Made by a program: the position numbers and the translations under genes
Shown here: positions 29,951 through 62,731 of the stretch, in pieces
How the letters are laid out: each line of letters begins with the position of its first letter
How positions within the stretch are numbered: position 1 is the first letter of the stretch
Notes under the pieces: generated by a model
Database searches by the model: none
Told to the model about the DNA's origin: nothing
What the model saw: only the letters and a program-made list of their open reading frames with translations
NCBI GenBank assembly: GCA_001599295.1
Contig: BCGN01000002.1
Span: 558,001 to 622,000, forward strand
DNA: 64,000 nucleotides
Source: Sporopachydermia quercuum
Taxonomy: Eukaryota
Direction: 5' to 3'

Positions 29951-32900
29951 ATGATGCAGAACTTGTACGAAGAGCCTTCTAATGGCTCCGATGTTCCAAA
30001 TCGACATATAAATAAGCCAAAAAAACATTTGAGGTCTTCAACGAATAGTTCCACTTCAACAACGTCCAATAAACCTTCTATAAGGCGTTCTAATGGTCTT
30101 TTCAACCTGGACATAGCTACAAAGATCTCTCCAAAGAAAACGCCTCTGCTTGACATTTCAAACCACGCTGACAATCCTAATAGGAAAGGAAGACTCAAGA
30201 AGTCATCACATTCACATTCGTTATCGGCATCGTTTAAATCAAATGAAGAGATCACAACTCCTCAGAAACCTCCAAAGGTAACAATGCCAGCTACAATAGC
30301 TCATCCTACTAGTTATTTTTATCCTAACCCAGAGTTTAGTCTTCCTGCACCTAAATCACCTACAAAATCAAGAATTCCTGCGTCGTCATTAGATCCAAGG
30401 CATACAAAGAAGTCTTTTCTGTTTAATTTGCCATCGCCTTCTTGCGATAGCTCGCTTCCTAAACATAAACCGCACACTAAAGCTCTTCCTATGAAGAGAA
30501 GACTGAGAACGAATATTCCATCAGATTCAGATATATTTGACAGAACCACAATATCAAGNTCAGCTTATGATACACCGAATAATACAACTGTCCTATCACC
30601 GAATGATGCTACTATTAGTATCAATAGAAACCAGTTCAAAGCTCATGACAATACTAGTGATCATCTGCACCATAATCATCATGATCCTAATCATAACCCA
30701 GATATAGATTATAATCCTCTCAATAACTCTCATAATCACACTACAGATCAAGACTTCCTGACACCAAACCAAGGTCCCCACAGCTATCGCTTGGTTAAGC
30801 CTCTACAAACAGCTTTCATGTCTTCGGGATTACTATCAAAGCTCAATAGGAAAAGTCAACCACCTATAAGCTCAGTGAAAGCTGATGGCAACTCTTCCAA
30901 TATAAGCATTCATCCACCAGAAACTCCTTGCAAGAAATCAAATAACTTATTCTCTTTAAGCACAACAGTTGGTGCTTCATTATCACCTTCTCCTGGGCTA
31001 CCATTCTCTGTTGCACAGTCTAAGAGGTCCAAGTCGAATCTCAACGTCAGCGTTTCAGCAATTGAAGTTTCAGCCGACCGCGACGCTGATGGGGACTCGA
31101 TTATGTCTGGTATAGAAAAAGACTCTCCTTTAGCTAACAGCAATATGAATAGAGCTATCAATAATTGTAAAATTGCCTCCGATGTTAACTGCAACAGCAC
31201 GAATGACATCAATACATCATCAATGACTGTTCTTGGTGATCGAATGGAAATTGACATTGACGCTGAAGAAGAAGCTTTTTCAAGGTACGTTTCTGATCAA
31301 TTCAGTCTTGACTCACCAGCTACCCCTACTAAAGACGAAGCAACTGCTAAAAAGAAACATAAGAGTAATAAAAATCAGCACAATCCTTATGCTTGGTTAG
31401 ATCCTTCTCCTTCCAAAATGTCCACTCCTTTACAGCAGCCTGTTGATTCTAGTAATTTAAACAACAAGAATATCAGCAAGAATATTATTATCACCAATAC
31501 TAATTATATTAACTCTGGGAAAACACCAAAGGGCATCAACACCATCAAATCCAAGCTCACTAACTATTTCCACAAGAATGACTCAACCACTTTACCTCCT
31601 CCTAATCCTNCATTCTCTCAGAAATCCCAGAGACCGAATCTACAGGTTTCTGTTAGAAGATCGTCTTCTGTTTCATCTATTGTTAATGATGGTAGTAGCA
31701 CAGGAAGTACTCCGGGAGTGTATGCTCTTGGAGGTCATGCCGGTTCAAGTTCACCAGCAAAGACGCCGAAAACACCATCAGAGAGACTGAACAGGTTTTT
31801 AGCTCATACATCAAATGGTCCTGATGCTGTAGATGAACCTATTGATGAAAGTTTGTGTGCTAGATTTGACGATGTAGCATTAGTAGGNAAGGGTGAATTC
31901 TCATTAGTATACATAGGACATACTAAACGGTTATCAGGAGGATCTCAAGCTACAGGATTGCCTACGAAATATGCTATTAAAAGGAATAAACATCCTTGGA
32001 GTGGTCCTAAGGCCCGGCAAAGACTATATGAAGAGGTAACTTGTTTAGGAAAACTAATGAATCCCATATTTGCTAGGCATAAAGCTGAATTCATATTGAA
32101 CCAACAGACGTATACTGAAGAAGTCCCAGACGAAGGAAGAGAGTATATAATAGATTTTGTTGATTCGTGGGAAAATCGTTTGGAAAAACATTTATACATT
32201 CAGACTGAGTTCTGTGAGAATGGAACTTTGGCTCAGTTCTTAGCTGAACATGGCCAGTTTTCTCGTTTAGATGAATGGCGGGTATGGAAGATTTTGGTTG
32301 AACTAGCTACTGGTTTACAGTATATTCATAAAGAGCTGATTCTTCATTTAGACTTGAAACCAGCTAATATATTCATTACTTTTGAAGGGTCATTGAAAAT
32401 TGGCGATTTCGGGATGGCAACGGTGTACCCAGTTCCAGAAGATGGATTTGATAGAGAAGGAGATCGAGAATACATTGCTCCAGAGATCTTGTCGCATAGA
32501 AANTATGGACCACCAGCCGATATTTTCTCTCTAGGATTAATGATGTTGGAGATTGCTGCCAATATCGTATTACCAGACAATGGATTATCATGGCAGAAGC
32601 TACGATCAGGAGATTTAACTGATGCTGGCAGACTTTCCTCAGGAGACCTAAAGCTGGCTTTAGGAAAAGCAGGAAATGTTGGTTATAGCCATAGCCATAG
32701 CCATGGTAATAACCATAGTGCTACTGCAGAAGAGCATTCATCACCATTATCACCAAAATACAAGTGTCGAAGCGTTCCTAAGAATAGAAGTTTAGGATCT
32801 TCGTCTACAGCTAGTTCTGAGGATAATTTACGGTCGGCTTCATCAACAACGACGGTTTCTCAGGGAGATGGCTTGATGTTCAAACCCGGGGTGTCTGGAG

Positions 32901-33313
32901 ACGGTGATTTGGAACTAGGAGTTCCTAGCGGTACAGGAGCAGGAACGGGAGCAGGAACGGGAGCAGGTGTTGATGAGCTTAAAGCTAGATTTGCGACAGA
33001 TGAAACCGAGGTTTTAGAAGCAGCTGACTTGCATAGACGAAGAAAGAATAAGCAGTCATTGGCCAGCCTTTCAGAAGCTATCCCAGAATGGGCCCCTACN
33101 TTTATGACTGATGATTCTGGTACTTTAGACGAATTAGTTAAATGGATGTTGATGCCAGATCCAACGCAACGGCCTAGTGCTGAAGAGCTTGTTTTTAGAC
33201 CAGAATTACTNCTGGTAGAAGAAAGAAGACGTACAGGAGCCACCATTTATGAAGGAGACTTTGGACCACCACCTGAGGTTGAAGACGAGGATGAAGTAAA
33301 TTATGAGCTTTAG
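29951..33313 (+). CDS. SWE1: Wee1-family kinase Swe1
   Basis: LVKPLQTAFMSSGLLSK and PPETPCKK N-terminal motifs; kinase motifs GEFSLVY, HLDLKPANIFITFEGSLKIGDFGMA, EGDREYIAPE, LPDNGLSWQKLRSGDL; C-terminal GATIYEGDFGPPP. Confidence 0.95.
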   Translation: MMQNLYEEPSNGSDVPNRHINKPKKHLRSSTNSSTSTTSNKPSIRRSNGLFNLDIATKISPKKTPLLDISNHADNPNRKGRLKKSSHSHSLSASFKSNEEITTPQKPPKVTMPATIAHPTSYFYPNPEFSLPAPKSPTKSRIPASSLDPRHTKKSFLFNLPSPSCDSSLPKHKPHTKALPMKRRLRTNIPSDSDIFDRTTISXSAYDTPNNTTVLSPNDATISINRNQFKAHDNTSDHLHHNHHDPNHNPDIDYNPLNNSHNHTTDQDFLTPNQGPHSYRLVKPLQTAFMSSGLLSKLNRKSQPPISSVKADGNSSNISIHPPETPCKKSNNLFSLSTTVGASLSPSPGLPFSVAQSKRSKSNLNVSVSAIEVSADRDADGDSIMSGIEKDSPLANSNMNRAINNCKIASDVNCNSTNDINTSSMTVLGDRMEIDIDAEEEAFSRYVSDQFSLDSPATPTKDEATAKKKHKSNKNQHNPYAWLDPSPSKMSTPLQQPVDSSNLNNKNISKNIIITNTNYINSGKTPKGINTIKSKLTNYFHKNDSTTLPPPNPXFSQKSQRPNLQVSVRRSSSVSSIVNDGSSTGSTPGVYALGGHAGSSSPAKTPKTPSERLNRFLAHTSNGPDAVDEPIDESLCARFDDVALVXKGEFSLVYIGHTKRLSGGSQATGLPTKYAIKRNKHPWSGPKARQRLYEEVTCLGKLMNPIFARHKAEFILNQQTYTEEVPDEGREYIIDFVDSWENRLEKHLYIQTEFCENGTLAQFLAEHGQFSRLDEWRVWKILVELATGLQYIHKELILHLDLKPANIFITFEGSLKIGDFGMATVYPVPEDGFDREGDREYIAPEILSHRXYGPPADIFSLGLMMLEIAANIVLPDNGLSWQKLRSGDLTDAGRLSSGDLKLALGKAGNVGYSHSHSHGNNHSATAEEHSSPLSPKYKCRSVPKNRSLGSSSTASSEDNLRSASSTTTVSQGDGLMFKPGVSGDGDLELGVPSGTGAGTGAGTGAGVDELKARFATDETEVLEAADLHRRRKNKQSLASLSEAIPEWAPXFMTDDSGTLDELVKWMLMPDPTQRPSAEELVFRPELXLVEERRRTGATIYEGDFGPPPEVEDEDEVNYEL

Positions 33314-35269: not shown

Positions 35270-38200
35270 ATGGCGGAAGATANCGGATCTAGCGATTATG
35301 CTACCTATATTGTAGCTACCAACCCACCTATTGGATCTGCTGAGATTCTAAGAGCTCGTCTAAGAGCTATTCAGAATATGAACGATGAGATTGCTTCCTT
35401 CTTCTCAGAGATCATCGAAGCTGAAAAACGATACTCAGCCGATTTAAAAGGAATATATCGTCAATATAGCTCTATTGGTAAGAGTATTAAATCTTTCAAA
35501 GCTAGCTCAGTTGTTTTGAATCCAAATCCCAAGAATACTGACTTGAATGTTCAATTGGGGCTTGTATCTGACCTTTGGACATCGGTGATTCAAGCCTTTG
35601 AACAGGAAGTTGATACTATTGATTCATTTACTAATAAAGTAGCTGTTGAGGTTGAACAGCCCATCAGTAGAATTACTAGAAATTCCAAGACTTGGAATGA
35701 CATGAAGTTGGCTTCTAATAATGTTTCAAGTCAAGCGAAAGCTCAATTGGCCTTGGAAAATCACGAGGAGAGTAAACATTCTTTGAATCCAAGCCATTTA
35801 TTACATAAAAAGGAATCGTCGAATAAAGATGAACTAGAGAAGCTGAAGTCAGAATGGGAAGAAAATGCTCCTAATGCTTTCCAGCAATTGCAACATTATG
35901 ATGAATATAGGTTAAGTAATTTGAAAGATGCTTTGTTGCGTTATGAAACTTGCTTTGTCGATAAACATCAGGCTAATATCAGCAATTCTGAGAGAATCCT
36001 TGATACTATTTTGTCTTTTGATCCTAAAGATGAAATCAAACGTTATGCATTAGAAATGCAATCTTCCGGTGTTAACTCGATGAAAGGCTCAGCTAATGGT
36101 TCTCATCACCAAGGTCCGAAGGCTCCTGCTTCTCGTAAGAGTGGAGTAGCAAGACAACCTTCTATTTCCTCTAATATAACTACTGGAAATGAACAATGGG
36201 GCGCTAGTGGCGCAGGCTCAGTTTCTAAAGGTCCTGCTTCCCCTGCTAAGAGAAACGTCTCAATGTCTTCTAATAGACCGGAATCTGTAATGGGAGTTGG
36301 TGCTAGTGGACTTATGGCTGGTTTCACGGAAGGTTCTGCTAATGCTGCTGCTGCTCCAGGATCACCATCAAAGTCTCCTAAGAAGCTCAGAAAGAAGATT
36401 GGTACACTCTTTGGAAGAAAAGGAAGGAAGAATAAGAAAAGCAAAGGTGAAGATGCTACTTTTGCTAGTATAAATGAAAGCGCTACAAGCTTTGGCACTC
36501 ATGACACTGGTGAAACTAGTTCTGTTGCTATGGGATCTCATATAGCCGAACAGTCTTCTCTTGCTGGTGAATCATCTGTAATTGCTGAAGAACCCAACAC
36601 CAAACCCCAGTCGGAGCCTGCTAACGCTTTTATTGACGAGGCCGACGAAGCTCTTTACGTTAAGCCTGCTGCAGAACTACCCAGTACTAAGCCTGCAGAG
36701 GCAGAGAACGATCTTTCGTTTACATCTACTCCTTTGGAACCGGTTAAACCTACTGGCCAATCAGGTGAAGAAATAGCTACCTCAGGANCCAGCCATTCTG
36801 CCGGTGCTGCTACTGGTGCTGTTGTCGGCGGTGTTGCCGTTGCAGGAGCTGCTGCTGCAGGAGCAGTTGCCGCAGTGACTGCTGCCTTGGGCCATCAGCC
36901 ACCTCCACCACCACCCTCTCGAAAATCTGCTGGTACCTCTTCAGGTTCTCATATCCCATCAGCAGATGCGTTTGCGGACGTAGAAGAAGAAGAAGAAGAA
37001 GACGACGAAGACGAAGACATCGATAAACCTGAAACACAACCAGGAGTTTATGGAAATACAGCAGCTGCTGATAATACCAGNGAAGATAGCTCATCTTCTG
37101 ACGATGAAGAACCAATCTCTGCTAGGGAGATTACAAGACCTTCAACATCATCAAACAGTATTCCTGCTGTTAAGGCTCAAGAAGAACTAACAGGAGGAAC
37201 TAAAGATGATTCAGAAGCTGCAGAAGCCGAAGATGCCATTTCAAACATTGCCAACTCTTTACCGAAGACAGAGCCTCGGAGAAGAAACAGAAAAGAAGTC
37301 ACATCTTCCATGTTTGAAGGTGTCACTGTCAACCCGACTAGTATTAACTCAGGTCATGGTACACCTAGTGATCCAGCAGCAGCTTTAAGAAGCTTATCTC
37401 TAAGCTCTAATTCGCCAGTATCACCAGTAGGGGATGAACTGAATTCGCTCCGTACCATGAGTATATCATCTAGCTCACAGTTAGGCCCATCTGGTCATTT
37501 GAACCCTGCAAACGTGTTTAGACATCCTGAAATCAATATCCCAGGTTTATACGGAAGTATCATTGAGGTCGTCAATGCAGAATACGTCAATGGGGTTCAA
37601 CAGAAGGTCCAAGTCATCGGTGAAGTTGCATTCAGGTATAACAAATCAGAATCTGATGCTGAAGGTGTTGAACCGGAAGCTATCAAAATCAGGCTTGTTC
37701 CTGGAGCAGCCCAACTAGAAAAATTACTGCCTAACACTACATTTGTTAAGCCTATTATTAGAACTGCTGAAGAAGAAAAGGAAAACCCTGGTGACGAATA
37801 CACTATTTCCTTACATCCTATAACGTCAAGAACATTAGGAGCATTGAAATATATGATCACTACGACATATTCCCCAATAACAATCCATCCAGTATGGAAA
37901 TTCGAACCTCATCAAGTCAGTTTGTTGTTCACTTATAAACTATCACCAGAATTCCTTGAAGAAGTATTGGGTTTCAATCTTAACGATGAAGAAGAAGTGG
38001 CCGATTTAGTCTTGCCTGTATCTGATCTTATTGTCTCTGTAGGCATTGAAACTACCAGCGGAATTAAGAGTGTTATGAGTAAACCAACTGGATTGTATAA
38101 TAAGGCAAACTCAAGAATGTATTGGCGATTTAAAGATATCAGTCATGAAGATGTAACGTTATTGAAATATGGCACGGAAGAGAAAATCCTAGTTAGATTT

Positions 38201-38401
38201 TTACTTGATAATACTAGTCAAGAAATCACTAGTAAGGAAGACAGTAGAGGAATCCAGTTCAGATTCTCATTAGATCTCTCAAATTACTTGAATTATAATA
38301 ATGATAAAGTGTTGAAGCTTCTGTCTCTTACTAGTGATGACTGGGGACTTATTAGATCTTATAGAAAGCTTGTGAGTGGTTCATATACAGCTAGAAGTTA
38401 G
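35270..38401 (+). CDS. SYP1: Muniscin endocytic adaptor (F-BAR + proline-rich linker + mu-homology domain)
   Basis: Helical N-terminus (RARLRAIQNMNDEIASFF..EKRYS), PPPPPPSRK, muHD motifs SIIEVVNA, GEVAF, WKFEPHQ, SKPTG, LVSGSY. Confidence 0.9.
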   Translation: MAEDXGSSDYATYIVATNPPIGSAEILRARLRAIQNMNDEIASFFSEIIEAEKRYSADLKGIYRQYSSIGKSIKSFKASSVVLNPNPKNTDLNVQLGLVSDLWTSVIQAFEQEVDTIDSFTNKVAVEVEQPISRITRNSKTWNDMKLASNNVSSQAKAQLALENHEESKHSLNPSHLLHKKESSNKDELEKLKSEWEENAPNAFQQLQHYDEYRLSNLKDALLRYETCFVDKHQANISNSERILDTILSFDPKDEIKRYALEMQSSGVNSMKGSANGSHHQGPKAPASRKSGVARQPSISSNITTGNEQWGASGAGSVSKGPASPAKRNVSMSSNRPESVMGVGASGLMAGFTEGSANAAAAPGSPSKSPKKLRKKIGTLFGRKGRKNKKSKGEDATFASINESATSFGTHDTGETSSVAMGSHIAEQSSLAGESSVIAEEPNTKPQSEPANAFIDEADEALYVKPAAELPSTKPAEAENDLSFTSTPLEPVKPTGQSGEEIATSGXSHSAGAATGAVVGGVAVAGAAAAGAVAAVTAALGHQPPPPPPSRKSAGTSSGSHIPSADAFADVEEEEEEDDEDEDIDKPETQPGVYGNTAAADNTXEDSSSSDDEEPISAREITRPSTSSNSIPAVKAQEELTGGTKDDSEAAEAEDAISNIANSLPKTEPRRRNRKEVTSSMFEGVTVNPTSINSGHGTPSDPAAALRSLSLSSNSPVSPVGDELNSLRTMSISSSSQLGPSGHLNPANVFRHPEINIPGLYGSIIEVVNAEYVNGVQQKVQVIGEVAFRYNKSESDAEGVEPEAIKIRLVPGAAQLEKLLPNTTFVKPIIRTAEEEKENPGDEYTISLHPITSRTLGALKYMITTTYSPITIHPVWKFEPHQVSLLFTYKLSPEFLEEVLGFNLNDEEEVADLVLPVSDLIVSVGIETTSGIKSVMSKPTGLYNKANSRMYWRFKDISHEDVTLLKYGTEEKILVRFLLDNTSQEITSKEDSRGIQFRFSLDLSNYLNYNNDKVLKLLSLTSDDWGLIRSYRKLVSGSYTARS

Positions 38402-39202: not shown

Positions 39203-40252
39203 TCAATTCACCTCATTCGAACTACCGAGATATGCAGAGAATATTGACCTATCATCCCAAAATTCGTCTCCTGGCAATCTAAACTCATCATCATCAAATA
39301 TAGATGATGTTTGAGAACATGTGGTTAGAAATAAATGTGTAGATGTTAATTTGGCTGTAGGTGGTTGGGGCACATGCCTCAAACCAGAGGTCAATGATTT
39401 GTATAATGGTGATGCAAAGAATTTCAACAGAAAAGGCTCAGTAGATGAAGAAGGCCCATAATGTGTTTGACAGAAGGAATTGTGATAATTTATATTTCCA
39501 GCTTCTTGCTTGCTAATTTTATTCTGTTGTTGTAGCAGTTGTTGTTTCTGTAATTTGTTGTATTGCAATTCTTTTGCTACTTTCTTAATTAAATCCACTT
39601 CCCAGGTTTCACAATTTTTCAATAGATCTGATGTGTAGAAATGTGGTTTATGTTTGGTGTCTGGCTTATTCAATTGAACTCTACGCGTTCCCGTTCTCAT
39701 TTCACGAAAACTAGGAAAGGTAGCACCAGGGACCGTTGTTGACTGAATGCGATAGACATAAGAACTTGTTTCACCAGCATCATCACCAACGCCACGGAAT
39801 GCAGTTATGTCTGCAACAGCTACATCGTCTTGATCATCAACACCCCAAGAAGATATAGGATTGCCAGTGCCTGTTGTGATATCAGATCCAGAAGAAATAA
39901 CACTGCCTCTGTTTCTATTCTTTCGTCTTTTCTGTCTTCGAATATACTCGCTTATCATCTCAGCAGATTGTTCTTCTTGCCAAGCGTTGATTCTATCTGC
40001 CACAGAGGGCACCAAACTCCCAGCACGAGGATTCAAGTGAATTGGCGTGGCAATAACCTCATCAAGATCTGATAAAGAGGAAATACTTAAAGGTTCTGTA
40101 GAAACATCGTCAGTATGAGGAGAGAAAACTACCCAGTCCTCTGATGGTGTTCTCGTTATATTTCTTGCTTCTACCTCAGTAGAGACAACACCATTATCAG
40201 AATTCGAAACCGCTCGGCTCTTATATGCCGCTGCAAATTGGTTGAATGCCAT
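39203..40252 (-). CDS. Uncharacterised 349-aa low-complexity protein; candidate selective-autophagy (pexophagy) receptor of Atg30/Atg36 type
   Basis: Intact single-exon ORF with S-E-D-W-V-V-F-S-P (cryptic AIM-like) and E-P-L-S-I-S-S (Atg11-binding-like). The ORF is solid; the function is inferred. Confidence 0.55.
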   Translation of the reverse strand: MAFNQFAAAYKSRAVSNSDNGVVSTEVEARNITRTPSEDWVVFSPHTDDVSTEPLSISSLSDLDEVIATPIHLNPRAGSLVPSVADRINAWQEEQSAEMISEYIRRQKRRKNRNRGSVISSGSDITTGTGNPISSWGVDDQDDVAVADITAFRGVGDDAGETSSYVYRIQSTTVPGATFPSFREMRTGTRRVQLNKPDTKHKPHFYTSDLLKNCETWEVDLIKKVAKELQYNKLQKQQLLQQQNKISKQEAGNINYHNSFCQTHYGPSSSTEPFLLKFFASPLYKSLTSGLRHVPQPPTAKLTSTHLFLTTCSQTSSIFDDDEFRLPGDEFWDDRSIFSAYLGSSNEVN

Positions 40253-41909
40253 CTTGAAAGTTGAAAGTTATATGTTCAGAAAGCGTTTTTATGTTACTAT
40301 TTATGAGCTCCCTTGTAGCTGACCAGCGTTCACAAAATAAAAGTACTAAACAGTCTGTCCAGCGCTTAACGCGTATTTTTTAGAAAATTCTGTAAAATGT
40401 TTGTAAATTGACTGTTAAAACCTTTATCTTCTCAGCTTGTCCTTTGGAGCCTCACAAAATTCAATGCTCATCAACAAATACTTGTAGTTCAATTCAGTTT
40501 TTCGTCACTATGGGTATCTACGTTTCTTATCGGCTGCTGAAGAGTCTTGTCCTTTATCAGTAGTAAAAGATATGTCTGTCACACGGACTCGAACACGTCA
40601 AAGCTTGCTTAACAATTTATACAAAATGTGACCGTATAATAGCATTCCAAAAATACATGCAATACTATACAATCCAGGAGTTTCTATCCTTCTTCTAGGT
40701 GTCAGAGTAGTTGATAAATAGAAGAGTGACAAACAGTGTTGTAATTGTCACTTCGATAAACTTAGTTACACAATACTTTCTTAATGATGCAAATTCAGGT
40801 GGAGGCAATTTTACCGGACAAAAAAGAAGGACAAAAGGGGAATTTTGATTGATAAGAGTGAGCTCGTCCGGTGTTGGGAGAAATGTATTGTGTGAAGGTA
40901 GGAAGGAATGTACGATGATGTAGGAAGAGAGGTGTTTTAATGAGAGTAAGCGATAAGAAGAATATGTGTTTTATTTGGATACGGTAAATGGGGGGTGATT
41001 TTAGTTATTAGTTTCACCGAGATAATAGGAGAAATATGCCGATTATGTGTGTAGGTAGGTAATCGCTCTTGCTAAAAGATGGTAGATAGCCTTTACTCAT
41101 CATTAATCGCCCGGATAACCGGACAGAGTGCAGATAGGGGTGAAGCTGGATTCATTTCCCGAACGGACGAGGACGGAACAGGAGCAAAAAAGGACAGGAA
41201 ATGGCAGTGGAAATGATAGGAAAACGTTAGAATGAGTATATTGAAAAGGAGAGAATATGATTCATACTACAACATTGGATACAGCAAGTTGAACAATGGA
41301 AGGATTGTAGAATACAAATTGTGGAAAGGATGTATGGCTGTCATTATGATTGAAACAAGGTTAGAGATAGCCGAAGTAGACAGTGGATGAAAGAATCGGA
41401 AAGATACGAAATAATTCCTTGATATTACTGACAGAAATAAAATACAGAAAGCTACTAAATAGAATTACCTAGAGTAGAATATCCTGGTTGCCATATCGTA
41501 GAATGTAAAAATTTCATGTCTTAAGGCACTTGATCTCTGTATCTCCGAAGAACCAATGTAGGCTAGGTAGTAGATAACCTGATTCTAACCAAGCACAATC
41601 AAACGGTTGAGAAATTAACTACAACTGTGTCATTCCCTTACCTCTAACCTATTTACACTTGATGTAGCGGTTATCAGAATATTTCACATAATAGAAGAGA
41701 CAACTTATTGGTTGTTCAAGCCTTCCTTCCCATCAAACAGCAATTCATCCGTTATCTTGTCCATTCAATTTTTGGGACAATTGCAAGGACATTAAATATG
41801 ACATAATCAAAAATAGATAAGGAAGATGACCTGTAAGTGTCATGTGTGGCTCTTCCGAATGAATGGGTGTAAAGTCAGGATCCAAACTTGCACAATCATT
41901 CGCCAAAAC

Positions 41910-41917
41910 TCACGTGA
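41910..41917. promoter_or_regulatory. Cbf1/bHLH E-box TCACGTGA upstream of the MIN8-like gene
   Basis: Perfect palindrome about 370 bp upstream of the ATG at 42289. Confidence 0.35.
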
Positions 41918-42288
41918 TAGGCACTATACAAATGTCAGAAATGTCATACTCTTATAACAAGAATCAAGCAGTTTTGTCCTGTTTTCAACGCCAATGTATC
42001 AAAGTTTCTTCGGAGGTGAGCTTTCCAAATTGGACATCAGGTCATTTAAAGAAAACCGAAGATGACATACGAGACACGAGCAAGACATACTTTCCACACA
42101 GTAGAGTACCATTCACTACCATCTAACCATCAAATTGACACAGTTTTTCTTGACTTTTCCTTGTAATTGGTGGGAGAGGAATGGGATCTTATGAGAAAGT
42201 GTATAATTTCAACAACTTACGATTGAGATAAGAGACAAGTAATTGGTTACTTTGTATATTCGATACATCAACTAAATATTAATTCAAA

Positions 42289-42925
42289 ATGAGACCTACC
42301 AATGTTGCATTGAACGCCAGTGCTGTATGTTGAAAAAATGTGGAGAGAAGAATGTAAATGATGGATGTTTTGCTAGTTAAAGGAAGGGACTTGATTCAAA
42401 TAATACGATAAGTTGAAAGGGTATATTCTGGGTCTATGTGAAATTAATGCTAGCAAAATGTCATCAGGCAAAAACCGTGGTAACAAAGAATAGGCGATAC
42501 TAGTTTCGCGATGATCTCAAGTGTCGATACAGATTTACTAACATGTTGCAGAAAAAGGGCATCCTCAAGTACGTTCCTCCTGAATTGGCTCCTCTTTGTA
42601 AGTAACACTTTGAAGAAATACGAATGGAATATCTTTTCATCAAGAATATAAGAAGAAAATCATTTTGCTAACATTCTACTAATAGTCGCTGCTGTTGCTG
42701 TTGCACTTGCTTGTAAGTAAAACCTCATATCATATATTCTCATCAACAATTGAGATTCAAGTTAACGACCCAACTATACTACGTTACCATTACAAAGTCT
42801 AACCATATAATTCAGCTGGTGTCTATTTCACTACTAAGAAGTTCAAGTATGACGAATCTTTGAGATTGTCTAGAAATCCTCACAATTCTGCTTTCGACGA
42901 ATCTTCTGGAGAAATCAAGAAGTAA
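42289..42925 (+). CDS. MIN8: NDUFA4/COXFA4-like mitochondrial microprotein, 72 aa; exons 42289-42324, 42552-42597, 42686-42712, 42816-42925
   Basis: Three canonical introns (GTATGT/GTAAGT/GTAAGT; TACTAAC/GCTAAC/TCTAAC). Product MRPTNVALNASAKKGILKYVPPELAPLFAAVAVALASGVYFTTKKFKYDESLRLSRNPHNSAFDESSGEIKK matches the pattern of S. cerevisiae YPR010C-A as I recall it (P.EL.PLF.AV.VAL.SG.YFT.KK...DE.LRL..NP). Confidence 0.88.
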
Positions 42926-43689: not shown

Positions 43690-43698
43690 TCACGTGAC
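43690..43698. promoter_or_regulatory. Cbf1 site TCACGTGAC upstream of RIM1
   Basis: Full RTCACGTG consensus on the minus strand, about 250 bp upstream of the ATG. Confidence 0.4.
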
Positions 43699-43945: not shown

Positions 43946-44542
43946 ATGCTGTCAGTGTTCAAGAGAAGCTTTTCCTCAAATGCTGTGAAAAGCGATGTGG
44001 CCAAGCTCACACTTATTGGTCATCTTGGTTCTTCTTTGGAGGCCAAGAAAGCAAGCAACGGTAGAGAATACTTGAGATACTCTTTGGCTGTTCATACCGG
44101 TCGTGGTGACAAGGAGACTACTTCATGGTTCAATATTGGCGTTTTTGACGATAAGACTATTGAATATATGACTAGCTCTGTTAGAAAAGGGTATGTAATA
44201 TAGCTTGAAGTTTGATTGAGCCAATTGAACATATATTCATATATATCGGCATATAATCGCGATTATTGATAGTGTAACTAACAATTTTTTTTTTTGTTTT
44301 CTAGTGCCTTGTTATATGTTGAAGCCAATGCTTCTATTCAAGCCTATGAGGATGAATCTGGTGTTAAGAGATCCAACTTGCAACTTTTCCAACGTATGTA
44401 TAGGATAACCTAGGGAACTGCAAACTTGTCATAACAGAAGCTCACAATAACCATGTAAAAGTGAGTGNTTTACTAACAAATCATTGCAGAATCATACAGA
44501 ACTATTAGGAATGGTCCTGAAAAGACTGAAGAAAGTGCTTGA
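43946..44542 (+). CDS. RIM1: Mitochondrial ssDNA-binding protein, 128 aa; exons 43946-44190, 44305-44393, 44490-44542
   Basis: SSB OB-fold (KLTLIGHLG, YLRYSLA, TSWFNIGVF, VRKG/ALLYVEA). Two GTATGT...CTAAC...YAG introns restore a 387-nt frame. Confidence 0.93.
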
Positions 44543-44967: not shown

Positions 44968-46140
44968 TTAATCCGTAAAATCAACACTGCTTAGCTCAAA
45001 ATTCTTGAACTTGCTTGTTGATTTAATGGAGTCTTGTGAATCATCTGTCGTCCTTTCAATAGCATATGTATGGAAATGAAATTTGGCAGTAACAGAATCT
45101 GAACTCTCAGCATATTGAGAGCCAGTCTCAAGATCAAGATTAGTGATTGAATCATTATCTTTTGATATCATTTTTCTCATAGCATTTATACATTTTCTAT
45201 CAAATTTATTCTTCTTTTCTGACATATAATCAACAGAACTTCCAAGCCCAATCTTTCTTAACCATGAGGCATACATTTTCATGGAATCAGTACCCGTACC
45301 AAGGAATATGAATGTTAAAAAAGCGACAACAAAATAGATCCATCTTTCTAATAGTGGTGGTTGATCTATTTTGAAAACATAAGCAGAATACTGGTAAATC
45401 AATTTTGGAGTCCAAGGGATCATGCTTTCTCGCAGGATATATATGAAATCAATGAGAATGTATAAAGCACAAGGTCCTGTGACTAGAATGACTCCAATAC
45501 AAAAGACCATTACCCTTAGAAGTCTGGAAACATTGAAGCCAGATTCAGCACAATGCAAGAAATCCTTCAAGTTTCTTTTTCTTTTGACGACCTGAATAAC
45601 AGCTAAAACAGCATAAACAACAGCAACAATCGACCATAAAACGGGAACAATTCCAACCGTTAGTAATGCTAACCAGGTAGATGCCAAACCAATCTCACAA
45701 CCGGAATATCGTAGCACAATATATCTCACGATCATATTCAATACCGAGATAATCATTAGATAAATTGGCGTTACCAAGCAGAATAGTAGGTCTTCAATTA
45801 ATCTTCTTTTAGGAGGCTTTTCAGCAAAAGCAGAAGGATTATTCATAATTAGATATACTTGTCTCATGATAGCAGTAATGGCGCATATGATTCCTGCTGA
45901 ATATGCTACTTTGAAACGAACCATTATGTCACAATAAACGTAGCCATTCCAAGAGTTTTCTATCATATTTGCATCACCCCAAATAATGGCATCAATGAAA
46001 GTTTTCAGACACATTATCAGTGTCCAAGTGATAAGAATGATTGTTGATACATTCCTATTTATTATGTGAAAGATGAATGGAGGAATGTTGAGTATTATAG
46101 CCAGAACTGACATAGATATTAATGCTGCTTTATAATCCAT
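44968..46140 (-). CDS. STE3: a-factor pheromone receptor (7-TM GPCR)
   Basis: Seven hydrophobic segments; W.G..YCDI, RY...RYSGC, SGFNVSRLLRV, FIFLGTG.DS..MY motifs of the Ste3 family. Confidence 0.95.
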   Translation of the reverse strand: MDYKAALISMSVLAIILNIPPFIFHIINRNVSTIILITWTLIMCLKTFIDAIIWGDANMIENSWNGYVYCDIMVRFKVAYSAGIICAITAIMRQVYLIMNNPSAFAEKPPKRRLIEDLLFCLVTPIYLMIISVLNMIVRYIVLRYSGCEIGLASTWLALLTVGIVPVLWSIVAVVYAVLAVIQVVKRKRNLKDFLHCAESGFNVSRLLRVMVFCIGVILVTGPCALYILIDFIYILRESMIPWTPKLIYQYSAYVFKIDQPPLLERWIYFVVAFLTFIFLGTGTDSMKMYASWLRKIGLGSSVDYMSEKKNKFDRKCINAMRKMISKDNDSITNLDLETGSQYAESSDSVTAKFHFHTYAIERTTDDSQDSIKSTSKFKNFELSSVDFTD

Positions 46141-50210: not shown

Positions 50211-51623
50211 ATGCCAGTTTATAACATCTCTCATGTTGAAAACGTGAGGATTTGCGTGGTAATGGTAGGTTTACCAGCTCGTGGTAAATCCTTAATTGCT
50301 CAAAAGATTGTAAGGTATCTTACATGGCTGTCAATCAAATCAAAATGTTTCAACGTTGGAATGTATAGAAGAACAAGCGAAGCACATCCAACTGCTGAAT
50401 TCTTTGATGCTAATAATGAAGAAGGGAAAAGAATCAGAAAGTTATCAGCTCAAATGGCTGTCACTGATATGATGAAATGGTTTAATGAAGAACAAGGTGT
50501 TGTTGGTATTCTTGATGCTACAAATTCAACTAGGGAGAGAAGAGAATGGATTCTTACTTTATGTAGAAGTTATAAAATAGAACCTATGTTTGTTGAAAGC
50601 TGGTGTACCGATAAAGATTTGATCATGCAGAATATTCTTGATGTGAAGACTTCAAGTCCTGATTATGTGGGGACCGACCCTGAAGTTGCGGTTAAAGATT
50701 TTCTTGATAGAATTGAAAAATATCGTGAGGTTTATGAAACAGTCAACGATCCTGATTTAACGTACGTGAAGATTATTAATGTTTCAGCCCAAGTTATAAT
50801 CTCAAGGATTGAAACCTATTTAGAATCAAGAATCGTTTACTTCTTGATGAATCTACATATTAAACCAAGAGCTATATGGCTATCAAGACACGGGGAGTCT
50901 ATGTTTAATTTATCAGGACAGATTGGTGGTGATGCTGATTTATCGCCTCGAGGTCGGCAATATGCCCAAATGTTACCTGCTTTGGTGAAATATTCAGTAG
51001 GAGATCGTGATCTTACAGTATGGACATCTACTTTAAAACGTACTCAACAAACTGCAAGTCTTTTATCTTATCCAAAACTTCAGTGGAAAGCTTTAGATGA
51101 ATTAGATGCTGGTGCATGTGATGGAATGACCTATGAGGAGATTGAAAGCATTTACCCTGAAGATTTCAAAGCTCGTGATGCCGATAAATATGAATATCGT
51201 TATAGAGGAGGTGAATCATATCGTGATGTTGTTATCCGTTTGGAACCTATTATTATGGAACTAGAAAGACAAGAAAACATTTTGATTGTTACTCATCAAG
51301 CCGTTTTACGTTGTATTTACGCTTACTTTATGAATGTTCCTCAAGATCAATCTCCTTGGATGGATGTTCCTTTGCATACTCTCATTAAGCTTGAACCAAG
51401 AGCTTATCATACTGTTGTCACTCGCATTAAGGCCAATATCCCTGCTGTGAGTACCTATAGAGAGAAAGGTAAAAGCGTGTTAGGGAATTCAAATCCTGGT
51501 ACTCCTGTTGCTGGTCAGCCTATTATAACTCTGGGTGAAGATAGTACTGGCAGAACATTACCTCAAATGTCTCAAGGTATTGAAGGCTGTACCGTTAGTA
51601 CAACTATTGTCAAAACAGTATAA
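50211..51623 (+). CDS. FBP26: Fructose-2,6-bisphosphatase / 6-phosphofructo-2-kinase, 470 aa
   Basis: VMVGLPARGKS, DATNST.ERR, RHGES, ELDAG, YRGGESY, THQAV. The likely start is AAAAATG at 50211, not the TTG at 50061. Confidence 0.93.
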   Translation: MPVYNISHVENVRICVVMVGLPARGKSLIAQKIVRYLTWLSIKSKCFNVGMYRRTSEAHPTAEFFDANNEEGKRIRKLSAQMAVTDMMKWFNEEQGVVGILDATNSTRERREWILTLCRSYKIEPMFVESWCTDKDLIMQNILDVKTSSPDYVGTDPEVAVKDFLDRIEKYREVYETVNDPDLTYVKIINVSAQVIISRIETYLESRIVYFLMNLHIKPRAIWLSRHGESMFNLSGQIGGDADLSPRGRQYAQMLPALVKYSVGDRDLTVWTSTLKRTQQTASLLSYPKLQWKALDELDAGACDGMTYEEIESIYPEDFKARDADKYEYRYRGGESYRDVVIRLEPIIMELERQENILIVTHQAVLRCIYAYFMNVPQDQSPWMDVPLHTLIKLEPRAYHTVVTRIKANIPAVSTYREKGKSVLGNSNPGTPVAGQPIITLGEDSTGRTLPQMSQGIEGCTVSTTIVKTV

Positions 51624-53002: not shown

Positions 53003-55810
53003 TTATTCGTTTGTTCCTTCACTTTCACTTTCTTCATCTTCACTGTCACTGCCATCGACATTGTCATAAAACTCATCTTCCGCTTCATCTTTTCCTTCAG
53101 AAACATCTTTCACACCCACAAGACCCCATGAAATCTTAGTGACCTCTTGCAACCTATCAAGAATCTGTCCCATAGGTGTGAATAGGCCAAACTGTTTCTG
53201 TTCACCATCATATGAATGTAACATGCCAACAACACCTAATCCAGCTTCAGATTTCTCTTGTTGTTGCNGTTGTTGTTGCTTATCATTCACTTGTAATCTC
53301 TCAAATATCGTACCTAAATACCCTGAACCGCTTCCTTTTGATGATCCACTCATAGAGTTGGCTGTTCTAACAGTACTACTACTATTAGCACTACTAGTGC
53401 TATTTCCACCACTACCACTATCATCAGATAACTTACTGAGTATCCATGCCCCAGAATCTCCACCGGTAGCAAACATTGGATTGTTCCCATTAGAACTAAC
53501 AACAAATTCACTACTATGAAGCTTTCCGTTCGCCCAATAAACTATCTTTGGCCCATTGATTTGTCCAGAAGTGTACTTTGACGTACTACCATATTTAAAC
53601 ACTTTCAGACCTGATGTTGGATTCACAAGCTTTTTAACGTATAAATTGCCAAACATTAGACCAGCATCATATTCTGAGAACTCTACGTCATCACCAAGAT
53701 AGTTTCTACAGATAAGCTCACTTCTGCATTTGATTACTGCAATATCTGATATAGAACCTTTAATAACAGCTCGTTCTCCCCATACAACTTGACCAAACGA
53801 GAACATTTCCTCACCTTTTTCTTTGATAGAACCACCTGAAGATGTAGCCGAAGCTGAGACAGAAGGAAATAACGCATCAAGTTCTTCTAAAGCATTGGAA
53901 TATCCAATGAACTCTTCTGACGTTTCCTTGTATTTATTCTTCTCATTCCGAAGAACTTTCCTATACATCTTAATCAAAGCAGGAGAAGGCACAGCAACAT
54001 TAGGGTAACCAACGGAAACATCCGGAAGCACCACATGGCCACAAGTTAGAGCAAATGCCGATTTTGCATATTCTGCAAGATCCACATCGTCTTTATTAAC
54101 TTTCGGATAAACATAGCCTCCGAGAGTTCCCGATAGAGTTGTAGCGTTGATTTCGGCCAAGGACATTGACATTGGCGGCGCTTTAGAGTTTGTGGGTATT
54201 CGGAACGGAGGTTTCACGGTAATCTTCCGACGAGCCGAGCTCCCCAAGCCTGCAGAACTTGCCGAGCTTGAATCGCCTGTTCCACATAGCTTGATATAGT
54301 CCTTCTGACAACAGAAATGCACATCTGGGAACAAATCAAACAAAGAATGAACAATCTGATAATGCTCGTTTTCTGGATTGGGGAATCCAAATATAACAGT
54401 TATAACTGAAGATTCAGGCGACAGGCCTCTTATTACTGGAGCCAGAAAAGCACCATCTTGATCGGCAACCTGGGAAGAATCAAAAGCTGACGCAAGCTCA
54501 ACAACACTATGAATCACTTCGTGAGAAGGCAACTCGTCAATGCAACCAACAGCAAACGTTTTCGGCACAGGAAGCGTTCCCGAGGATCTGTTCACTAGTT
54601 CTAACTGTAAGCATAACTCATATAATGCTCTTAGCACCAAACTTCGCGATTGAACAAAACCAGCCGAATTGAGTAGATTATCGATGAAATGCAGTAAGAT
54701 TTTTATGATTCTTCGTAATGAAGCATTGTTATGAACAGTGATTGTCTTGGGTGGTAAAACTGCAAAGTTAGCACAGGAAACAGTTGACTTCACTGCTTCG
54801 GATACTTTGATAGAAGCCCGGGATAAATCCAGTACATTACATTGAATATCAGTCATCACGGTATCTAGTTTCTTTGCTAGAGCAGAAAGCTGGTTAAGAG
54901 CGTTGTTTTTAACTGCAAACAGGTTGATATTAGAATTGAGTGTAGGAGAATTACCAGCGCTTGAACAAGGGGAGATACTAGAATTTGACTGAATGGAACC
55001 TCCTGATTGACTGCAGATGCGACCTTTATCACCCTTAGGAATAGCTATTCCTGTTGAAGAGTTAATAGAACCTGTTGTAGGGAATCCTCTGGCACCAGGA
55101 ACAGCTCCANTAGCAGCAGTATTAGAAAAAGCTCCCTCGGGAAATACGAGGGTGTTCCTTAAACCAGCGGAAGCAGAGGCTCGAGCACTCCAAAGGCTTG
55201 AACCAGCGTTCCGTGGTTTCCTGGCTTTTGATGAGTTCAGTGATGCTGAATCAGAATCAGAATCTTCTTCTAGATCACCAGATTGTAGTATTACTAATGG
55301 TTTACCAATATCAGCAGCTTTCGATGATTTCTCACTTTCTTCTTCAACCTGCTGTAGTTTCATATCTTGTTGATGAGATAGTGCGCTTTTACCTGCTGTA
55401 AAGCTATTAGAACCCACAGTTGAAGGTCTAGTAGAAGTTGTCCGTTGATCACCAGCACCGGAAAACACACTGCTGGAATAAGTGTCTGGTTGACTTGAAA
55501 CAGTCGAATAAACGTCAGAAGATACTATTTTCAAAGCTTCTATAGAACCTCTAAATTTGTCTATTGAATCCTTTGACTCATTCTCCTTTAATTTATTGGT
55601 ATCTTTACCCATTTTTCCTCCTGGGGTTGAACTTGATGCTTCATTTGATGATATGACTGATTTCAGTCTTCCTTGGCTAGCAGTTCCAGTGATATTAGTC
55701 AAAGAGTTATCTTGATTTGAGGAGCTGGTTTGAGACGTTTGGGATATGGAGCTAGCATCAGAGTTCCTTCTTTTCACTCTTCTCCAGTTAATACTAGGAT
55801 AAGGTGCCAT
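53003..55810 (-). CDS. SSY5: SPS amino-acid-sensor serine endoprotease (peptidase S64)
   Basis: Ser-rich pro-domain; PFRIPT..APPMSMSL, SGTLGGY; catalytic triad TCGHV / SDIAVI / GDSGAW; GMLHSYDGE.KQFGLFTPM..IL.RL..VT.I.W. Confidence 0.92.
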   Translation of the reverse strand: MAPYPSINWRRVKRRNSDASSISQTSQTSSSNQDNSLTNITGTASQGRLKSVISSNEASSSTPGGKMGKDTNKLKENESKDSIDKFRGSIEALKIVSSDVYSTVSSQPDTYSSSVFSGAGDQRTTSTRPSTVGSNSFTAGKSALSHQQDMKLQQVEEESEKSSKAADIGKPLVILQSGDLEEDSDSDSASLNSSKARKPRNAGSSLWSARASASAGLRNTLVFPEGAFSNTAAXGAVPGARGFPTTGSINSSTGIAIPKGDKGRICSQSGGSIQSNSSISPCSSAGNSPTLNSNINLFAVKNNALNQLSALAKKLDTVMTDIQCNVLDLSRASIKVSEAVKSTVSCANFAVLPPKTITVHNNASLRRIIKILLHFIDNLLNSAGFVQSRSLVLRALYELCLQLELVNRSSGTLPVPKTFAVGCIDELPSHEVIHSVVELASAFDSSQVADQDGAFLAPVIRGLSPESSVITVIFGFPNPENEHYQIVHSLFDLFPDVHFCCQKDYIKLCGTGDSSSASSAGLGSSARRKITVKPPFRIPTNSKAPPMSMSLAEINATTLSGTLGGYVYPKVNKDDVDLAEYAKSAFALTCGHVVLPDVSVGYPNVAVPSPALIKMYRKVLRNEKNKYKETSEEFIGYSNALEELDALFPSVSASATSSGGSIKEKGEEMFSFGQVVWGERAVIKGSISDIAVIKCRSELICRNYLGDDVEFSEYDAGLMFGNLYVKKLVNPTSGLKVFKYGSTSKYTSGQINGPKIVYWANGKLHSSEFVVSSNGNNPMFATGGDSGAWILSKLSDDSGSGGNSTSSANSSSTVRTANSMSGSSKGSGSGYLGTIFERLQVNDKQQQXQQQEKSEAGLGVVGMLHSYDGEQKQFGLFTPMGQILDRLQEVTKISWGLVGVKDVSEGKDEAEDEFYDNVDGSDSEDEESESEGTNE

Positions 55811-60025: not shown

Positions 60026-62731
60026 TCAGACATCAATATTAATGTCCTGGTACTTCTCGTCGGTCTCTCGTTGGCGGGCAATGTAGCTCAAAGTACGTTC
60101 AAAATGTTTCTTGGGAGATTCGCTGACCCCAGATTCCGCATTGTTGCTTAGGTTTGTTTGAATTAACTCGATCAACCCATTGATATACTTGACTGTAATA
60201 GCCTCATTATCATGGAAGAAGTAATACAGACATCTGTTCAATATTTCAACAAACAGTTCGACAGTAACTGCAACGTCCATGCATGCATCAGCAACTCTTA
60301 ACGATCTTTGCAAACACTCCAAAACTCTCTTAGGATCTCTAAACAGTTCAGTATTCTCATCTTCATTCAGGGCTGAAATCTCAGTACACCACCANAGGTG
60401 ACTAGCAAGATAAACAGCTCGGCATTGGTCAGGTTTCTTTAACAACTTTGCACCATACAAAGCGCATTTTGTGATTAGAGTATCATAGTTTTCTCTGGAA
60501 AAGTTTCTAGTTTGCTGTAATGCTGAAGCGACTACACAAATTGCTTGGAACTGCGCACGCGAATCTGAAATCGACTCTTCGTAGACAGAAAATCCTTGAG
60601 CAAAGAATTCATAACTAACTTCTTCTGAACCAATCTGATCCGCTATCTGAGCACTGGTGATGTACAAACGTAGAGCAAGCTCTGATCTTCCGACACTATG
60701 AATATCTGAAATTACTTTCTGTAGGAACTTGAACACAGGACCTGTACGAGTTATAACGTCGAATGGCTTGCTCTTTGACTTTTTCTGCTTTTCTAACCCT
60801 TTGTATCGTCTTACTAGCTTCAAGGCTGATGTGACTAAAGCAGGATAAGTAAATTGAATCTTGTTGCCTCCTTCACTTAGAGCCTTCCTAGATGCAATCA
60901 ATAATCTTGCTTGAACAGTTGGATTAGGATTACGTAAAAGATGGACTATACGAACAACTTTTTCTTGTTCATTGATGAATTCTGGGGAATATGCTTCAGA
61001 ATCGGTTGAATCTGCAGCTCCAAATAAAGCAGAGTTTTGTTTCAATGCCTTTGATGTAACATTTGATTTATCACCGACGATTAAAATTCGTACTAAACCA
61101 AAGATTCCTTCTGCATTCTCAACTGTATCGATAATGTAATCATTTCTCAATAATGCGTCAATGACAGCCCAAGAAATTCCTCTTTGAGTTGCTGGAGACT
61201 GCAAAGTCAGCAAAGGAATGTAGTTGGGAATCGATAGAACAGTTAATAGTCGTGTGTAAGCTCTGATAGGAGCAATTAATAGAGCCTTTAGGTTTTCGGT
61301 TGTACCAGGACTGTAGAGATCCGTTGTTTCTTTCAGTTCTTCAACTTTCTTTAAAGTGAATCCCAGAATTTCATCGACATACTCCAACTTTTCAGGATAA
61401 CATGTTAAACAAAGTCTACATAAAGCTTCCAACAATGCAACGATTTCTTCAATCCCGGTTTCCGGTTTCGCATCTAATAATCTACCAAAGTACGACCAAA
61501 AAACCTCAAATAAATTGATATCAACAGGAACACCATGTGATAATTCAACTGGGCTTTCGCTGGTTTGATCTTTGTCATCTTTCCCTGTCTCTTTATCTTC
61601 AGTTGTTTCCTTGACAGTGTCATTTCCAGTTTTTGTTGTATCTATGGGTTCTGTTTCTGTTGCATCTGTTGGCGATTCTTCATCCTGTTTAACGCTTTCC
61701 TTTTCATCGTCATTTTCTCCAACTTTTTCATCTGTTTTTCCGTCATACTTTTCTTCAATATTCATTTGTTCAAATCCAGAAGTGTCTAAGTCTTCTCTGC
61801 TAGCAAAAGCAGTTAATCTATCTAACATAGTGATCACAATTCTGCGTATATTCACAGCAGGATTCAATTGCATAGTAGCATCGAGGAATTGTTGTAAAGT
61901 GTATAAATGAAACTCATCAGGAAACACCTGTGTGATAACATCAAGCAGGTATTCTTGGGCAATAACGTCTCTACACTGAACAACTTGCTCTAAGATAGTC
62001 GGTAGGATATTAGTTTTGTAGTATTCTTTATCAATACCTTCAAGCTGCGATAAACGAACCAAGTTAGAACCAACCAGGATCTGGAGTTCCTTTCTTTCTC
62101 TAGTTCTCTTTTCACGTTCTCTAGAATGTCCTTGATGTTGTAACCGAACCCATAGTTTATTCATTTCAACGAAATTAGTAATAACAAACTGGATGGAGTC
62201 TGATAGATTACCTTCTGATCCTTCACTGTTACCAATAGGCAATAAATCTCTTGTTCTTTGTGACAGATAGTATCTCAGAAACAAACCTCGAATAGGATGC
62301 TGTACACCTCTGCACATTTCCATCATATCTTTCATGATCTCTTTGACTGGAGCATCAGGTATTGACATATAGACGGTACCCACAGTGATCAAGAGATATA
62401 ACCTAGGGATAATGTTACCAGCATACTGAACCAATTCATACAAATCAGCCAAGTGGTTTGTTGGATGTGATTCTTTGAGATATGTTGCCAAATAGCCTAA
62501 AGCATCAAACACAGCAATGTATAATTCGTAGTATTGTTTAGGTGTTAAGTTAGAAGTTCTTAGTTCGGCTAAAAACGTTGATGCATGTTTCAAAGCATCC
62601 ATGGTTCTACCTTTGCCAGCATCTAAACATTTACGCATAGCTTGTTGCTGTTGCTTGATGACCATTAGAGAGTCTTCAAGCATTCTAGCTTGTTCCTCCG
62701 GTGTTGGCGGAGGAGGAGCAACTGAAGACAT
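60026..62731 (-). CDS. VPS35: Retromer cargo-recognition subunit Vps35
   Basis: [74 protein letters not shown]. Confidence 0.97.

Follow-up and report, generated by a model that had tools for sequence, protein, structure and literature searches.

An undescribed ascomycete protein family with an invariant W-x-x-F motif and its possible tie to the pexophagy receptors Atg30 and Atg36

Could a protein without a recognizable domain, encoded next to SWE1 and SYP1 in the yeast Sporopachydermia quercuum, belong with the pexophagy receptors Atg30 and Atg36, which are described in papers as functional counterparts without homology? The gene in question, P0001, lies on the minus strand at 39203..40252 of a 64,000-nucleotide stretch (contig BCGN01000002.1, positions 558,001 to 622,000), which we call the window. 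An earlier sequence-only reading had described P0001 as an orphan with Atg30-like motifs at an ATG36-like locus and had suggested that the two receptors are diverged orthologues. In our reading, P0001 is an adaptor protein, disordered for the most part, that bears short linear motifs. Tentatively, and with some hesitation, we take it further, as a receptor for selective autophagy that is regulated by phosphorylation and belongs to the Atg30/Atg36 kind, most likely peroxisomal and maybe at the chromosomal slot of ATG36. The features of the gene and of its protein, including a candidate Atg8-interacting motif (AIM), are as follows.

39203..40252, minus strand: P0001, 349 aa, divergent member of an unnamed, mostly disordered ascomycete family (codon-position GC content, homology)
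40178..40189, minus strand: VVST, residues 22-25, hydrophobic-Ser/Thr motif 18 residues before W40 (pattern scan)
40118..40144, minus strand: SEDWVVFSP, residues 37-45, Atg30-type W-x-x-F AIM-like core (W40, F43), then the invariant S44-P45 (alignment)
40064..40117, minus strand: residues 46-63, HTDDVSTEPLSISSLSDL, acidic Ser/Thr-rich stretch including DDVSTE and EPLSISS (by eye)
39908..40003, minus strand: amphipathic helix 1, residues 84-115, with invariant R87/W91/Q95/E102 and a basic run at its end (AlphaFold2, alignment)
39839..39850, minus strand: SWGV, residues 135-138, short block common to part of the family (SWG[VI], SFGIE) (alignment)
39500..39607, minus strand: helix 2, residues 216-251, starting at invariant W217 and holding DLIKKVAKEL (AlphaFold2, alignment)
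39248..39265, minus strand: EFWDDR, residues 330-335, near-invariant C-terminal Trp block (W332) (alignment)

The open reading frame (ORF) runs from ATG to TGA, and its GC content of 0.46, 0.44 and 0.29 at the three codon positions is a periodicity of the coding type. The motif coordinates given in the sequence-only reading proved exact (SEDWVVFSP at residues 37-45, nt 40144-40118; EPLSISSLSDL at residues 53-63, nt 40096-40064). The RINAWQEEQS helix that it had pointed out, at residues 87-96, falls inside the helix that AlphaFold2 predicts at 84-115, and the N-terminus that it had called disordered and Ser-rich is indeed without secondary structure over residues 1-83, with 13 Ser among them (16%).

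We then asked about relatives. A word-indexed search with the single P0001 sequence gave no match. Among 1.84 billion representative sequences, phmmer returned three matches at E <= 0.001, one of them collinear (P0003, E 1.7e-6). P0003, annotated as hypothetical, has 298 residues, comes from Trichomonascus vanleenenianus and aligns collinearly with P0001 in BLASTP (23% identity over 211 aa, E 5e-10). The other two, P0002 and P0004, are long repeat proteins without collinear similarity and were set aside because their scores sum 10 and 14 short stretches against residues 38-98. Profile searching brought in 4 proteins in round 1 and 17 in round 2, all annotated as hypothetical: 16 yeast-type proteins of 260-332 residues, whose only named hosts are T. 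vanleenenianus and T. ciferrii, and P0020, which is 611 residues long and comes from the Sordariomycete Geosmithia morbida. The 17-sequence alignment A3 consists of P0001 and the 16 yeast-type proteins; with P0020, the family as counted here has 18 members. The database-wide E value of P0020 was 0.014. Scored against the A3 hidden Markov model (HMM) it reached 54.8 bits, compared with 7.8 bits for the best of 2000 shuffles of its own sequence, and the family is therefore not confined to budding yeasts but occurs in the Pezizomycotina too, in at least one species. The claim that P0001 is an orphan has to be given up: phmmer, the profile rounds and the HMM together place it in what is, by its alignment, an undescribed and sharply defined family of Trichomonascus-lineage yeasts and a filamentous ascomycete.

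No existing name attaches to this family. Pfam returned nothing at or near family cut-offs for P0001, for any of the 17 A3 members or for P0020; the best recurring match, CB_ParB_C, appeared in 3 of 17 members at 5.6e-4 and was treated as noise. The profile search, which scores only proteins that have 5-residue words in common with the query, brought up no protein named Atg30 or Atg36 among the 17. A search of the PDB with the family profile found only ankyrin repeats (E 0.31). In the ESM Atlas, P0010 had no usable match. Two scans of metagenome contigs gave 596 pattern matches each, with none confirmed by tblastn and no related locus. No RNA run was listed as containing the sequence. Among contigs from sequencing runs only the source organism appeared, apart from two tiny identical fragments, at depth 2, that came from two further runs within the same study; relatives were absent.

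What has this family conserved? Mean column identity in A3 is 28%, and W40, F43, S44 and P45 are invariant. The family start block is MA[F/Y], the MAFNQ of P0001 being found again in P0006 and P0007. It is followed by [D/E]-x-W-[V/T/I]-[V/L]-F-S-P, whose W..FSP is present in 18 of 18 members, and across the family by an acidic Ser/Thr-rich linker. A T-P-L-x-F-P-x-H-x-G-x-G-x-F block occurs in 17 of 18 members. The helix-1 block, R-[V/I]-N-x-W-R-x-[D/E]-Q-S-x-L, contains the invariant R87, W91, Q95 and E102, and the helix-2 block starts with W-[EQD] at the invariant W217 and has the pattern hydrophobic-hydrophobic-x-K/R-hydrophobic-hydrophobic. Near the other end of the protein, 13-20 residues from the C-terminus, stands a near-invariant Trp in a Y-W-[ED] block (W332, kept in at least 90% of A3). 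At the extreme C-terminus P0006, P0007 and P0020 have W-G-[D/E]-V, which is a canonical W-x-x-V AIM-like (or gamma-adaptin ear [GAE]-type) motif; most other members end in P-V-W, and P0001 ends in N-E-V-N. P0001 is the most divergent member (17-27% identity in A3), and it has kept the start, W..FSP, both helices, W332 and 10 invariant residues.

Can the invariant W-x-x-F be an Atg8 docking site? A 2025 paper states that AIMs whose fourth position is F are known from Atg30 (Pichia pastoris) and its homologues alone, and a WDFF motif in the same paper binds ATG8. The WDFF in question, in Arabidopsis ERC1, was tied to ATG8 by pull-down and mutation; ERC1 differs from our family in being an unrelated plant protein of the coiled-coil type that has the motif at its extreme C-terminus, and its binding means that Atg8 can be bound by a motif with F at position 4. 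According to a review, phosphorylation of Atg30 takes place at S71, for Atg8 binding, and at S112, within the Atg11-binding region, and what the sequence-only reading had stated of Atg30 (a phospho-Ser before a W-x-x-F AIM and an Atg11-binding motif downstream) agrees with the papers. Atg30 binds Pex3, Pex14 and Atg37 as well as Atg8 and Atg11, and pexophagy depends on it.

P0001 reads S37-E-D-W40-V-V-F43, with a phosphorylatable Ser upstream of W-x-x-F, which is a match to Atg30 at the level of the motif only. In family members the Trp is preceded by D, E, S or T: P0006 and P0007 have S-D-W-V-V-F, P0012 and P0015 have T-E-W-V-V-F, and all four, like P0020, carry S or T at position -2 from the Trp. 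The AIM residues of Atg30 are W73 and F76, and given these positions the S/T-x-W-x-x-F spacing is the one implied by S71. The Ser- or acidic-preceded W-x-x-F, pointed out earlier in P0001, is the hallmark of the entire family (18/18) and not the chance feature of one protein. W-x-x-F, the rarest of the features that mark the Atg30 family, is by the alignment also what this family conserves most, and it is our strongest argument from sequence.

The predicted structure is of the same kind. AlphaFold2, run on P0001 with an alignment of 17 homologues, gave a mean pLDDT (the predicted score of the local distance difference test) of 52.6, and only the helices were confident (82-96 for residues 84-115, 72-85 for residues 216-251); over residues 1-83, the means of ten-residue blocks were 39-54. 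P0010, a more typical member, had a mean pLDDT of 54.6 and was likewise unstructured except for its helices. Atg30 of H. polymorpha is reported to be unstructured but for short helices predicted to contact Pex3, at residues 169-178, 276-287 and 333-342, the last of which is the FLKKLII motif. Helix 2 of P0001, with D-L-I-K-K-V-A-K-E-L, resembles FLKKLII, a short amphipathic likeness that could easily be chance.

By published descriptions, then, P0001 and Atg30 both appear as mostly disordered chains with a few short helices, one of them FLKKLII-like. The Atg30 proteins of Komagataella phaffii, Ogataea polymorpha and Candida boidinii also share with the family an N-terminal W-x-x-F that Ser, Thr or acidic residues immediately precede, and Atg30 has Ser/Thr-rich flanks suited to phospho-regulation, as the family does. 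There are differences as well. Atg30 has a strict Atg11 site, absent in the family, and its motif lies at about residue 73, compared with residue 40 in P0001. The family has blocks that may be its own, F-S-P, H-x-G-x-G-x-F and R-V-N-A-W-R-x-x-Q, and it reaches a Sordariomycete, where an Atg30 homologue is unreported.

Is there also a place for Atg11? The Atg11-binding consensus proposed for Atg32, Atg36 and Atg30 is D/SILSSS. Looser motifs of this kind flank the W-x-x-F on both sides. Upstream, 9 of 18 members have [ILVAM][LIV][ST][ST] at a distance of 13-20 residues from the Trp (VVST in P0001; ALSS and VLST elsewhere). Atg19 has a W-x-x-L AIM about 20 residues after a Ser cluster, and the layout of Atg19/Atg34 is comparable, a hydrophobic-Ser/Thr motif followed by the Trp, with no homology implied; in Atg19/Atg34, however, the motifs are C-terminal, behind folded cargo-binding domains. 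The Atg11-binding Ser cluster of Atg19 is placed at S391 in a published paper. Downstream, most clades have, by eye, a [D/E]-[V/I/L]-[S/T]-S block 8-14 residues after the Trp (DDVSTE in P0001), and P0006 and P0007 have EEVLSTT, which is near D/SILSSS and near D-E-I-A-I-L-S97 of Atg36. This stretch of Atg36, and the A-S-V-N-N-Y-Q that follows its initiator Met, were translated from primers and are seven residues each. The looser flanking motifs are compatible with phospho-regulated Atg11 binding; they are not evidence for it.

We next turn to the position of the gene, which bears on ATG36. The neighbors that place it are these.

29951..33313, plus strand: SWE1, Wee1/Myt1-type kinase (Pfam, structure matches)
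35270..38401, plus strand: SYP1, FCH and muniscin mu-homology domains (Pfam)
43946..44203, plus strand: RIM1 exon, mitochondrial single-stranded DNA-binding protein domain (Pfam)
44968..46140, minus strand: STE3, a-factor receptor (Pfam)
50211..51623, plus strand: FBP26-like, 6PF2K and histidine phosphatase domains, 470 aa, named by architecture and size only (Pfam)
53003..55810, minus strand: SSY5, peptidase S64 (Pfam)
60026..62731, minus strand: VPS35 (Pfam)

The kinase is called SWE1 because its best matches are Myt1/Wee1 structures. In full, the order in the window is SWE1(+), SYP1(+), the ORF of P0001(-), RIM1(+), STE3(-), FBP26-like(+), SSY5(-), a Tc5-like ORF(-) and VPS35(-). The sequence-only reading had given SWE1-SYP1-[ORF]-MIN8-RIM1; the domains bear out SWE1, SYP1 and RIM1, and MIN8 was not found in the interval 40253-43945, 3.7 kb at 35% GC in which no ORF matched Pfam convincingly and neither a tRNA nor an Rfam family was detected. 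A transposon in this gap, suspected from 19-base matches, was dropped, since no terminal repeats were found in its support.

Published papers give ATG36 as YJL185c, and the sequence-only reading agrees with them on this and on Atg36 being not homologous to Atg30. In the window, the ORF has SYP1 on one side and RIM1 on the other, both on the opposite strand, and shares its own strand with SSY5 and VPS35. On the Saccharomyces cerevisiae map as we take it to be, SWE1 (YJL187C), SSY5 (YJL156C), FBP26 (YJL155C) and VPS35 (YJL154C) are, like ATG36, on the Crick strand of the left arm of chromosome X. SYP1 (YCR030C) and RIM1 (YCR028C-A) presumably lie beside RPS14A (YCR031C), the ohnologue of RPS14B (YJL191W), and together with the assumed ohnologue pairs ELO2/ELO1 (YCR034W/YJL196C) and PHO87/PHO90 (YCR037C/YJL198W) they would make this part of chromosome III a duplicate of YJL198-19x in mirror orientation. 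STE3 (YKL178C), likewise, we place in the next sister block of the whole-genome duplication, at a distance of two genes from RPL17A (YKL180W), whose ohnologue is RPL17B (YJL177W). When these presumed tracks are interleaved, the order before duplication becomes approximately SYP1, SWE1, ATG36, RIM1, ..., STE3, ..., SSY5/FBP26/VPS35, with ATG36 presumably on the strand opposite to SYP1/RIM1 and on the same strand as SSY5/VPS35.

Taken with this assumed map, the order in the window would put the ORF at the place and in the orientation of ATG36. The other S. cerevisiae genes that we assign to the interval (MNN5, GON7, MNN11, RBH1, ATP12, PFD1, ATG27, RPL17) belong to recognizable families, none of them matched by the ORF; the domain-less gene of similar size (293 aa) is ATG36. 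Order and strands fit the assumed interleaved map except at SWE1, whose placement deviates, and on that assumption the positional argument is stronger than the sequence-only reading had made it. The FBP26-like gene and SSY5 are swapped relative to the map as we take it. We also observe that the right half of the window (29951-62731) is collinear with the left arm of S. cerevisiae chromosome X, on the same presumed map, and interleaved with the duplicate-block genes SYP1, RIM1 and STE3.

How far does the likeness to Atg36 extend beyond position? P0001 would share with Atg36 its place and strand in the SWE1 ... SSY5/VPS35 block, on the presumed S. cerevisiae map, and both lack a known domain, with lengths of 349 and 293 aa. 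Motley et al. (2012) described an F33/L36 motif near the N-terminus of Atg36 and a conserved W282/L285 at 11 residues from its end. Two coarse parallels follow: the aromatic-x-x-hydrophobic at 33-36 is matched by one at 40-43 in P0001, and the conserved Trp 11 residues from the C-terminus by the family Trp at 13-20. However, the AIM-like motif of Atg36 is F-x-x-L and not W-x-x-F, and its Atg11 site (A-I-L-S97) lies 64 residues after it. Homologues of Atg36 have been reported only within the Saccharomycetaceae.

If P0001 is a receptor of this kind, how would it work? We infer the following scheme. The N-terminal E-D-W-V-V-F core would dock in the two hydrophobic pockets of Atg8, in the manner of the W-x-x-F AIM of Atg30. 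Phosphorylation of the flanks VVST, DDVSTE and EPLSISS and of the invariant S-P would switch on binding of Atg8 and Atg11. The helices at 84-115 and 216-251 may anchor the protein on its cargo, for which Pex3 is the obvious candidate.

Several observations weigh against this scheme. The Atg8 pocket usually tolerates L, I or V, and the invariant F followed by an invariant S-P suggests a recognition more specific than that. The strict [DS]ILSSS occurs in 0 of 18 members, and EPLSISS, put forward as the Atg11 motif in the sequence-only reading, turned out to be private to P0001 and not conserved. The looser Ser/Thr-hydrophobic motifs sit in Ser-rich low-complexity sequence, with per-sequence shuffle P values of 0.006-0.26, and the downstream block is 8-20 residues from the Trp, compared with about 39 in Atg30 and 64 in Atg36. 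P0001 alone among the 18 members is missing H-x-G-x-G-x-F, and it has lost the terminal W-G-[DE]-V or PVW ending. As to position, SWE1 departs from the presumed interleaved map both in its side of SYP1 and in its strand, and the synteny comes from one window set against a map that is itself an assumption of ours. No Pichia, Ogataea or Saccharomyces protein came up in the profile search, which, with the missing Atg30 and Atg36 names, also counts against a receptor of this kind; both absences are weak evidence, because a protein is scored in this search only if it has 5-residue words in common with the query. Finally, filamentous fungi are reported to be without an Atg30 or Atg36 homologue and to use Nbr1. 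Of the sequence-only reading as a whole, the conserved W-x-x-F and, on the presumed map, the positional argument survive; orphan status, EPLSISS as an Atg11 site and MIN8 do not.

Could the conserved block serve something other than autophagy? A Cdc4 phosphodegron consists of hydrophobic residues, a phosphorylated S or T before P, and an acidic or phosphorylated residue at +4. In the family S44-P45 is invariant, hydrophobic residues precede it and 8 of 12 clades have S, T, D or E at +4, so V-V-F-S-P-x-x-[S/T/D/E] could be read as a Cdc4/Fbw7-type phosphodegron in a conserved disordered regulator that is expressed at G1/S and unrelated to autophagy, its nearness to SWE1 being coincidental or the gene having been lost in Saccharomycetaceae. 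Two hexamers resembling the MluI cell-cycle box (MCB) fit this reading.

40369..40374, no strand assigned: ACGCGT, MCB-like hexamer 117 bp upstream of the ATG of the ORF (hexamer count)
29855-29860: ACGCGT, MCB-like hexamer 96 bp upstream of the ATG of SWE1 (hexamer count)

The copy upstream of SWE1, itself a G1/S gene in S. cerevisiae, is the only other promoter-proximal one, and a CCTCGG element of the fatty-acid type is absent from the promoter of the ORF; these points, too, speak against a pexophagy receptor. A single hexamer is weak evidence, however. The 64-kb window contains 5 ACGCGT, against an expectation of 2.1, and this count was reached in 5 of 100 shuffles. The degron consensus also leaves unexplained the invariant Trp four residues upstream and the acidic residues before it, gives the conserved helices no role and does not account for the ATG36-collinear position. 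We consider a phosphodegron of this kind, the main rival reading, rather unlikely. As an observation in its own right, the pair of ACGCGT hexamers near SWE1 and the ORF is a possible sign of G1/S control.

Much less probable, in our view, is an endocytic or clathrin-adaptor accessory protein. The motif classes known from stonin, NECAP and epsinR would cover W-V-x-F as a ligand of the AP-2 alpha appendage and a terminal W-G-[DE]-V as a gamma-ear or GAE-type ligand. The core W-[VTI]-[VL]-F, which all 18 members have and acidic residues follow, would suit the alpha-ear as well as Atg8 and to that extent tells against the autophagy reading, and the last four residues of three members (P0006, P0007 and P0020) are indeed WGDV or WGEV. 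Several endocytic motifs are usual in an accessory protein of endocytosis, however, and no member has an NPF, a DPF/DPW, an FxDxF or a clathrin box, save one loose FGDRF; the ESM Atlas lead for P0001, 'YBR071W-like', scored 0.79, which is the noise level, and was discarded. The most improbable explanation of all is that P0001 is a decaying or non-functional copy in S. quercuum. In its favor are the identity of 17-27% and the missing H-x-G-x-G-x-F and terminal Trp motif, but the frame is intact over 349 codons in a window of 36% GC, has the coding-type GC periodicity, and preserves the 10 invariant residues, both helices and the conserved MAFNQ start.

Returning to the reading of P0001 as a selective-autophagy receptor, we then asked what it would imply for Atg30 and Atg36. 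The family might link the two as diverged orthologues of one ancient ascomycete pexophagy receptor that survives in filamentous fungi, a step that we hold to be unlikely. The marks of this receptor would be an Atg8 motif of the acidic W/F-x-x-F/L type near the N-terminus, flanks regulated by phosphorylation and helices that bind Pex3, and its locus would have been retained beside SWE1, SYP1 and RIM1 in budding yeasts. If so, two lineage-specific inventions, Atg30 and Atg36, become one fast-evolving ancient receptor, the Trichomonascus-group yeasts gain a concrete pexophagy candidate where no receptor is known, and P0001 becomes a clear example of an 'orphan' explained by divergence past recognition. 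Even if the autophagy reading is wrong, there is an undescribed family with sharp motifs, found in a yeast lineage and in a filamentous ascomycete, that is directly testable.

Elsewhere in the window we observed a full-length xanthine dehydrogenase/oxidase-type gene (16281-20522, minus strand, 1413 aa) with all of the molybdopterin, FAD and 2Fe-2S domains; to our knowledge, this enzyme is absent from most budding yeasts. A 560-aa ORF between SSY5 and VPS35 (57663-59345, minus strand) has HTH_psq, Tc5 DNA-binding and weak DDE_1 matches and is, by these domains, a pogo/Tc5-like transposase or a domesticated relative. An ORF with RNase III and double-stranded RNA-binding domains (12174-12938, minus strand) is only 254 aa long and is therefore probably one exon of an intron-split RNT1-like gene; its neighbor, a 279-aa ORF at 10763-11602 on the plus strand, had no Pfam match. 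The assembly contains single N bases in SYP1 (35270-38401, X in the translation) and, in intergenic sequence, at about 39047, 43100-43900 and 44800.

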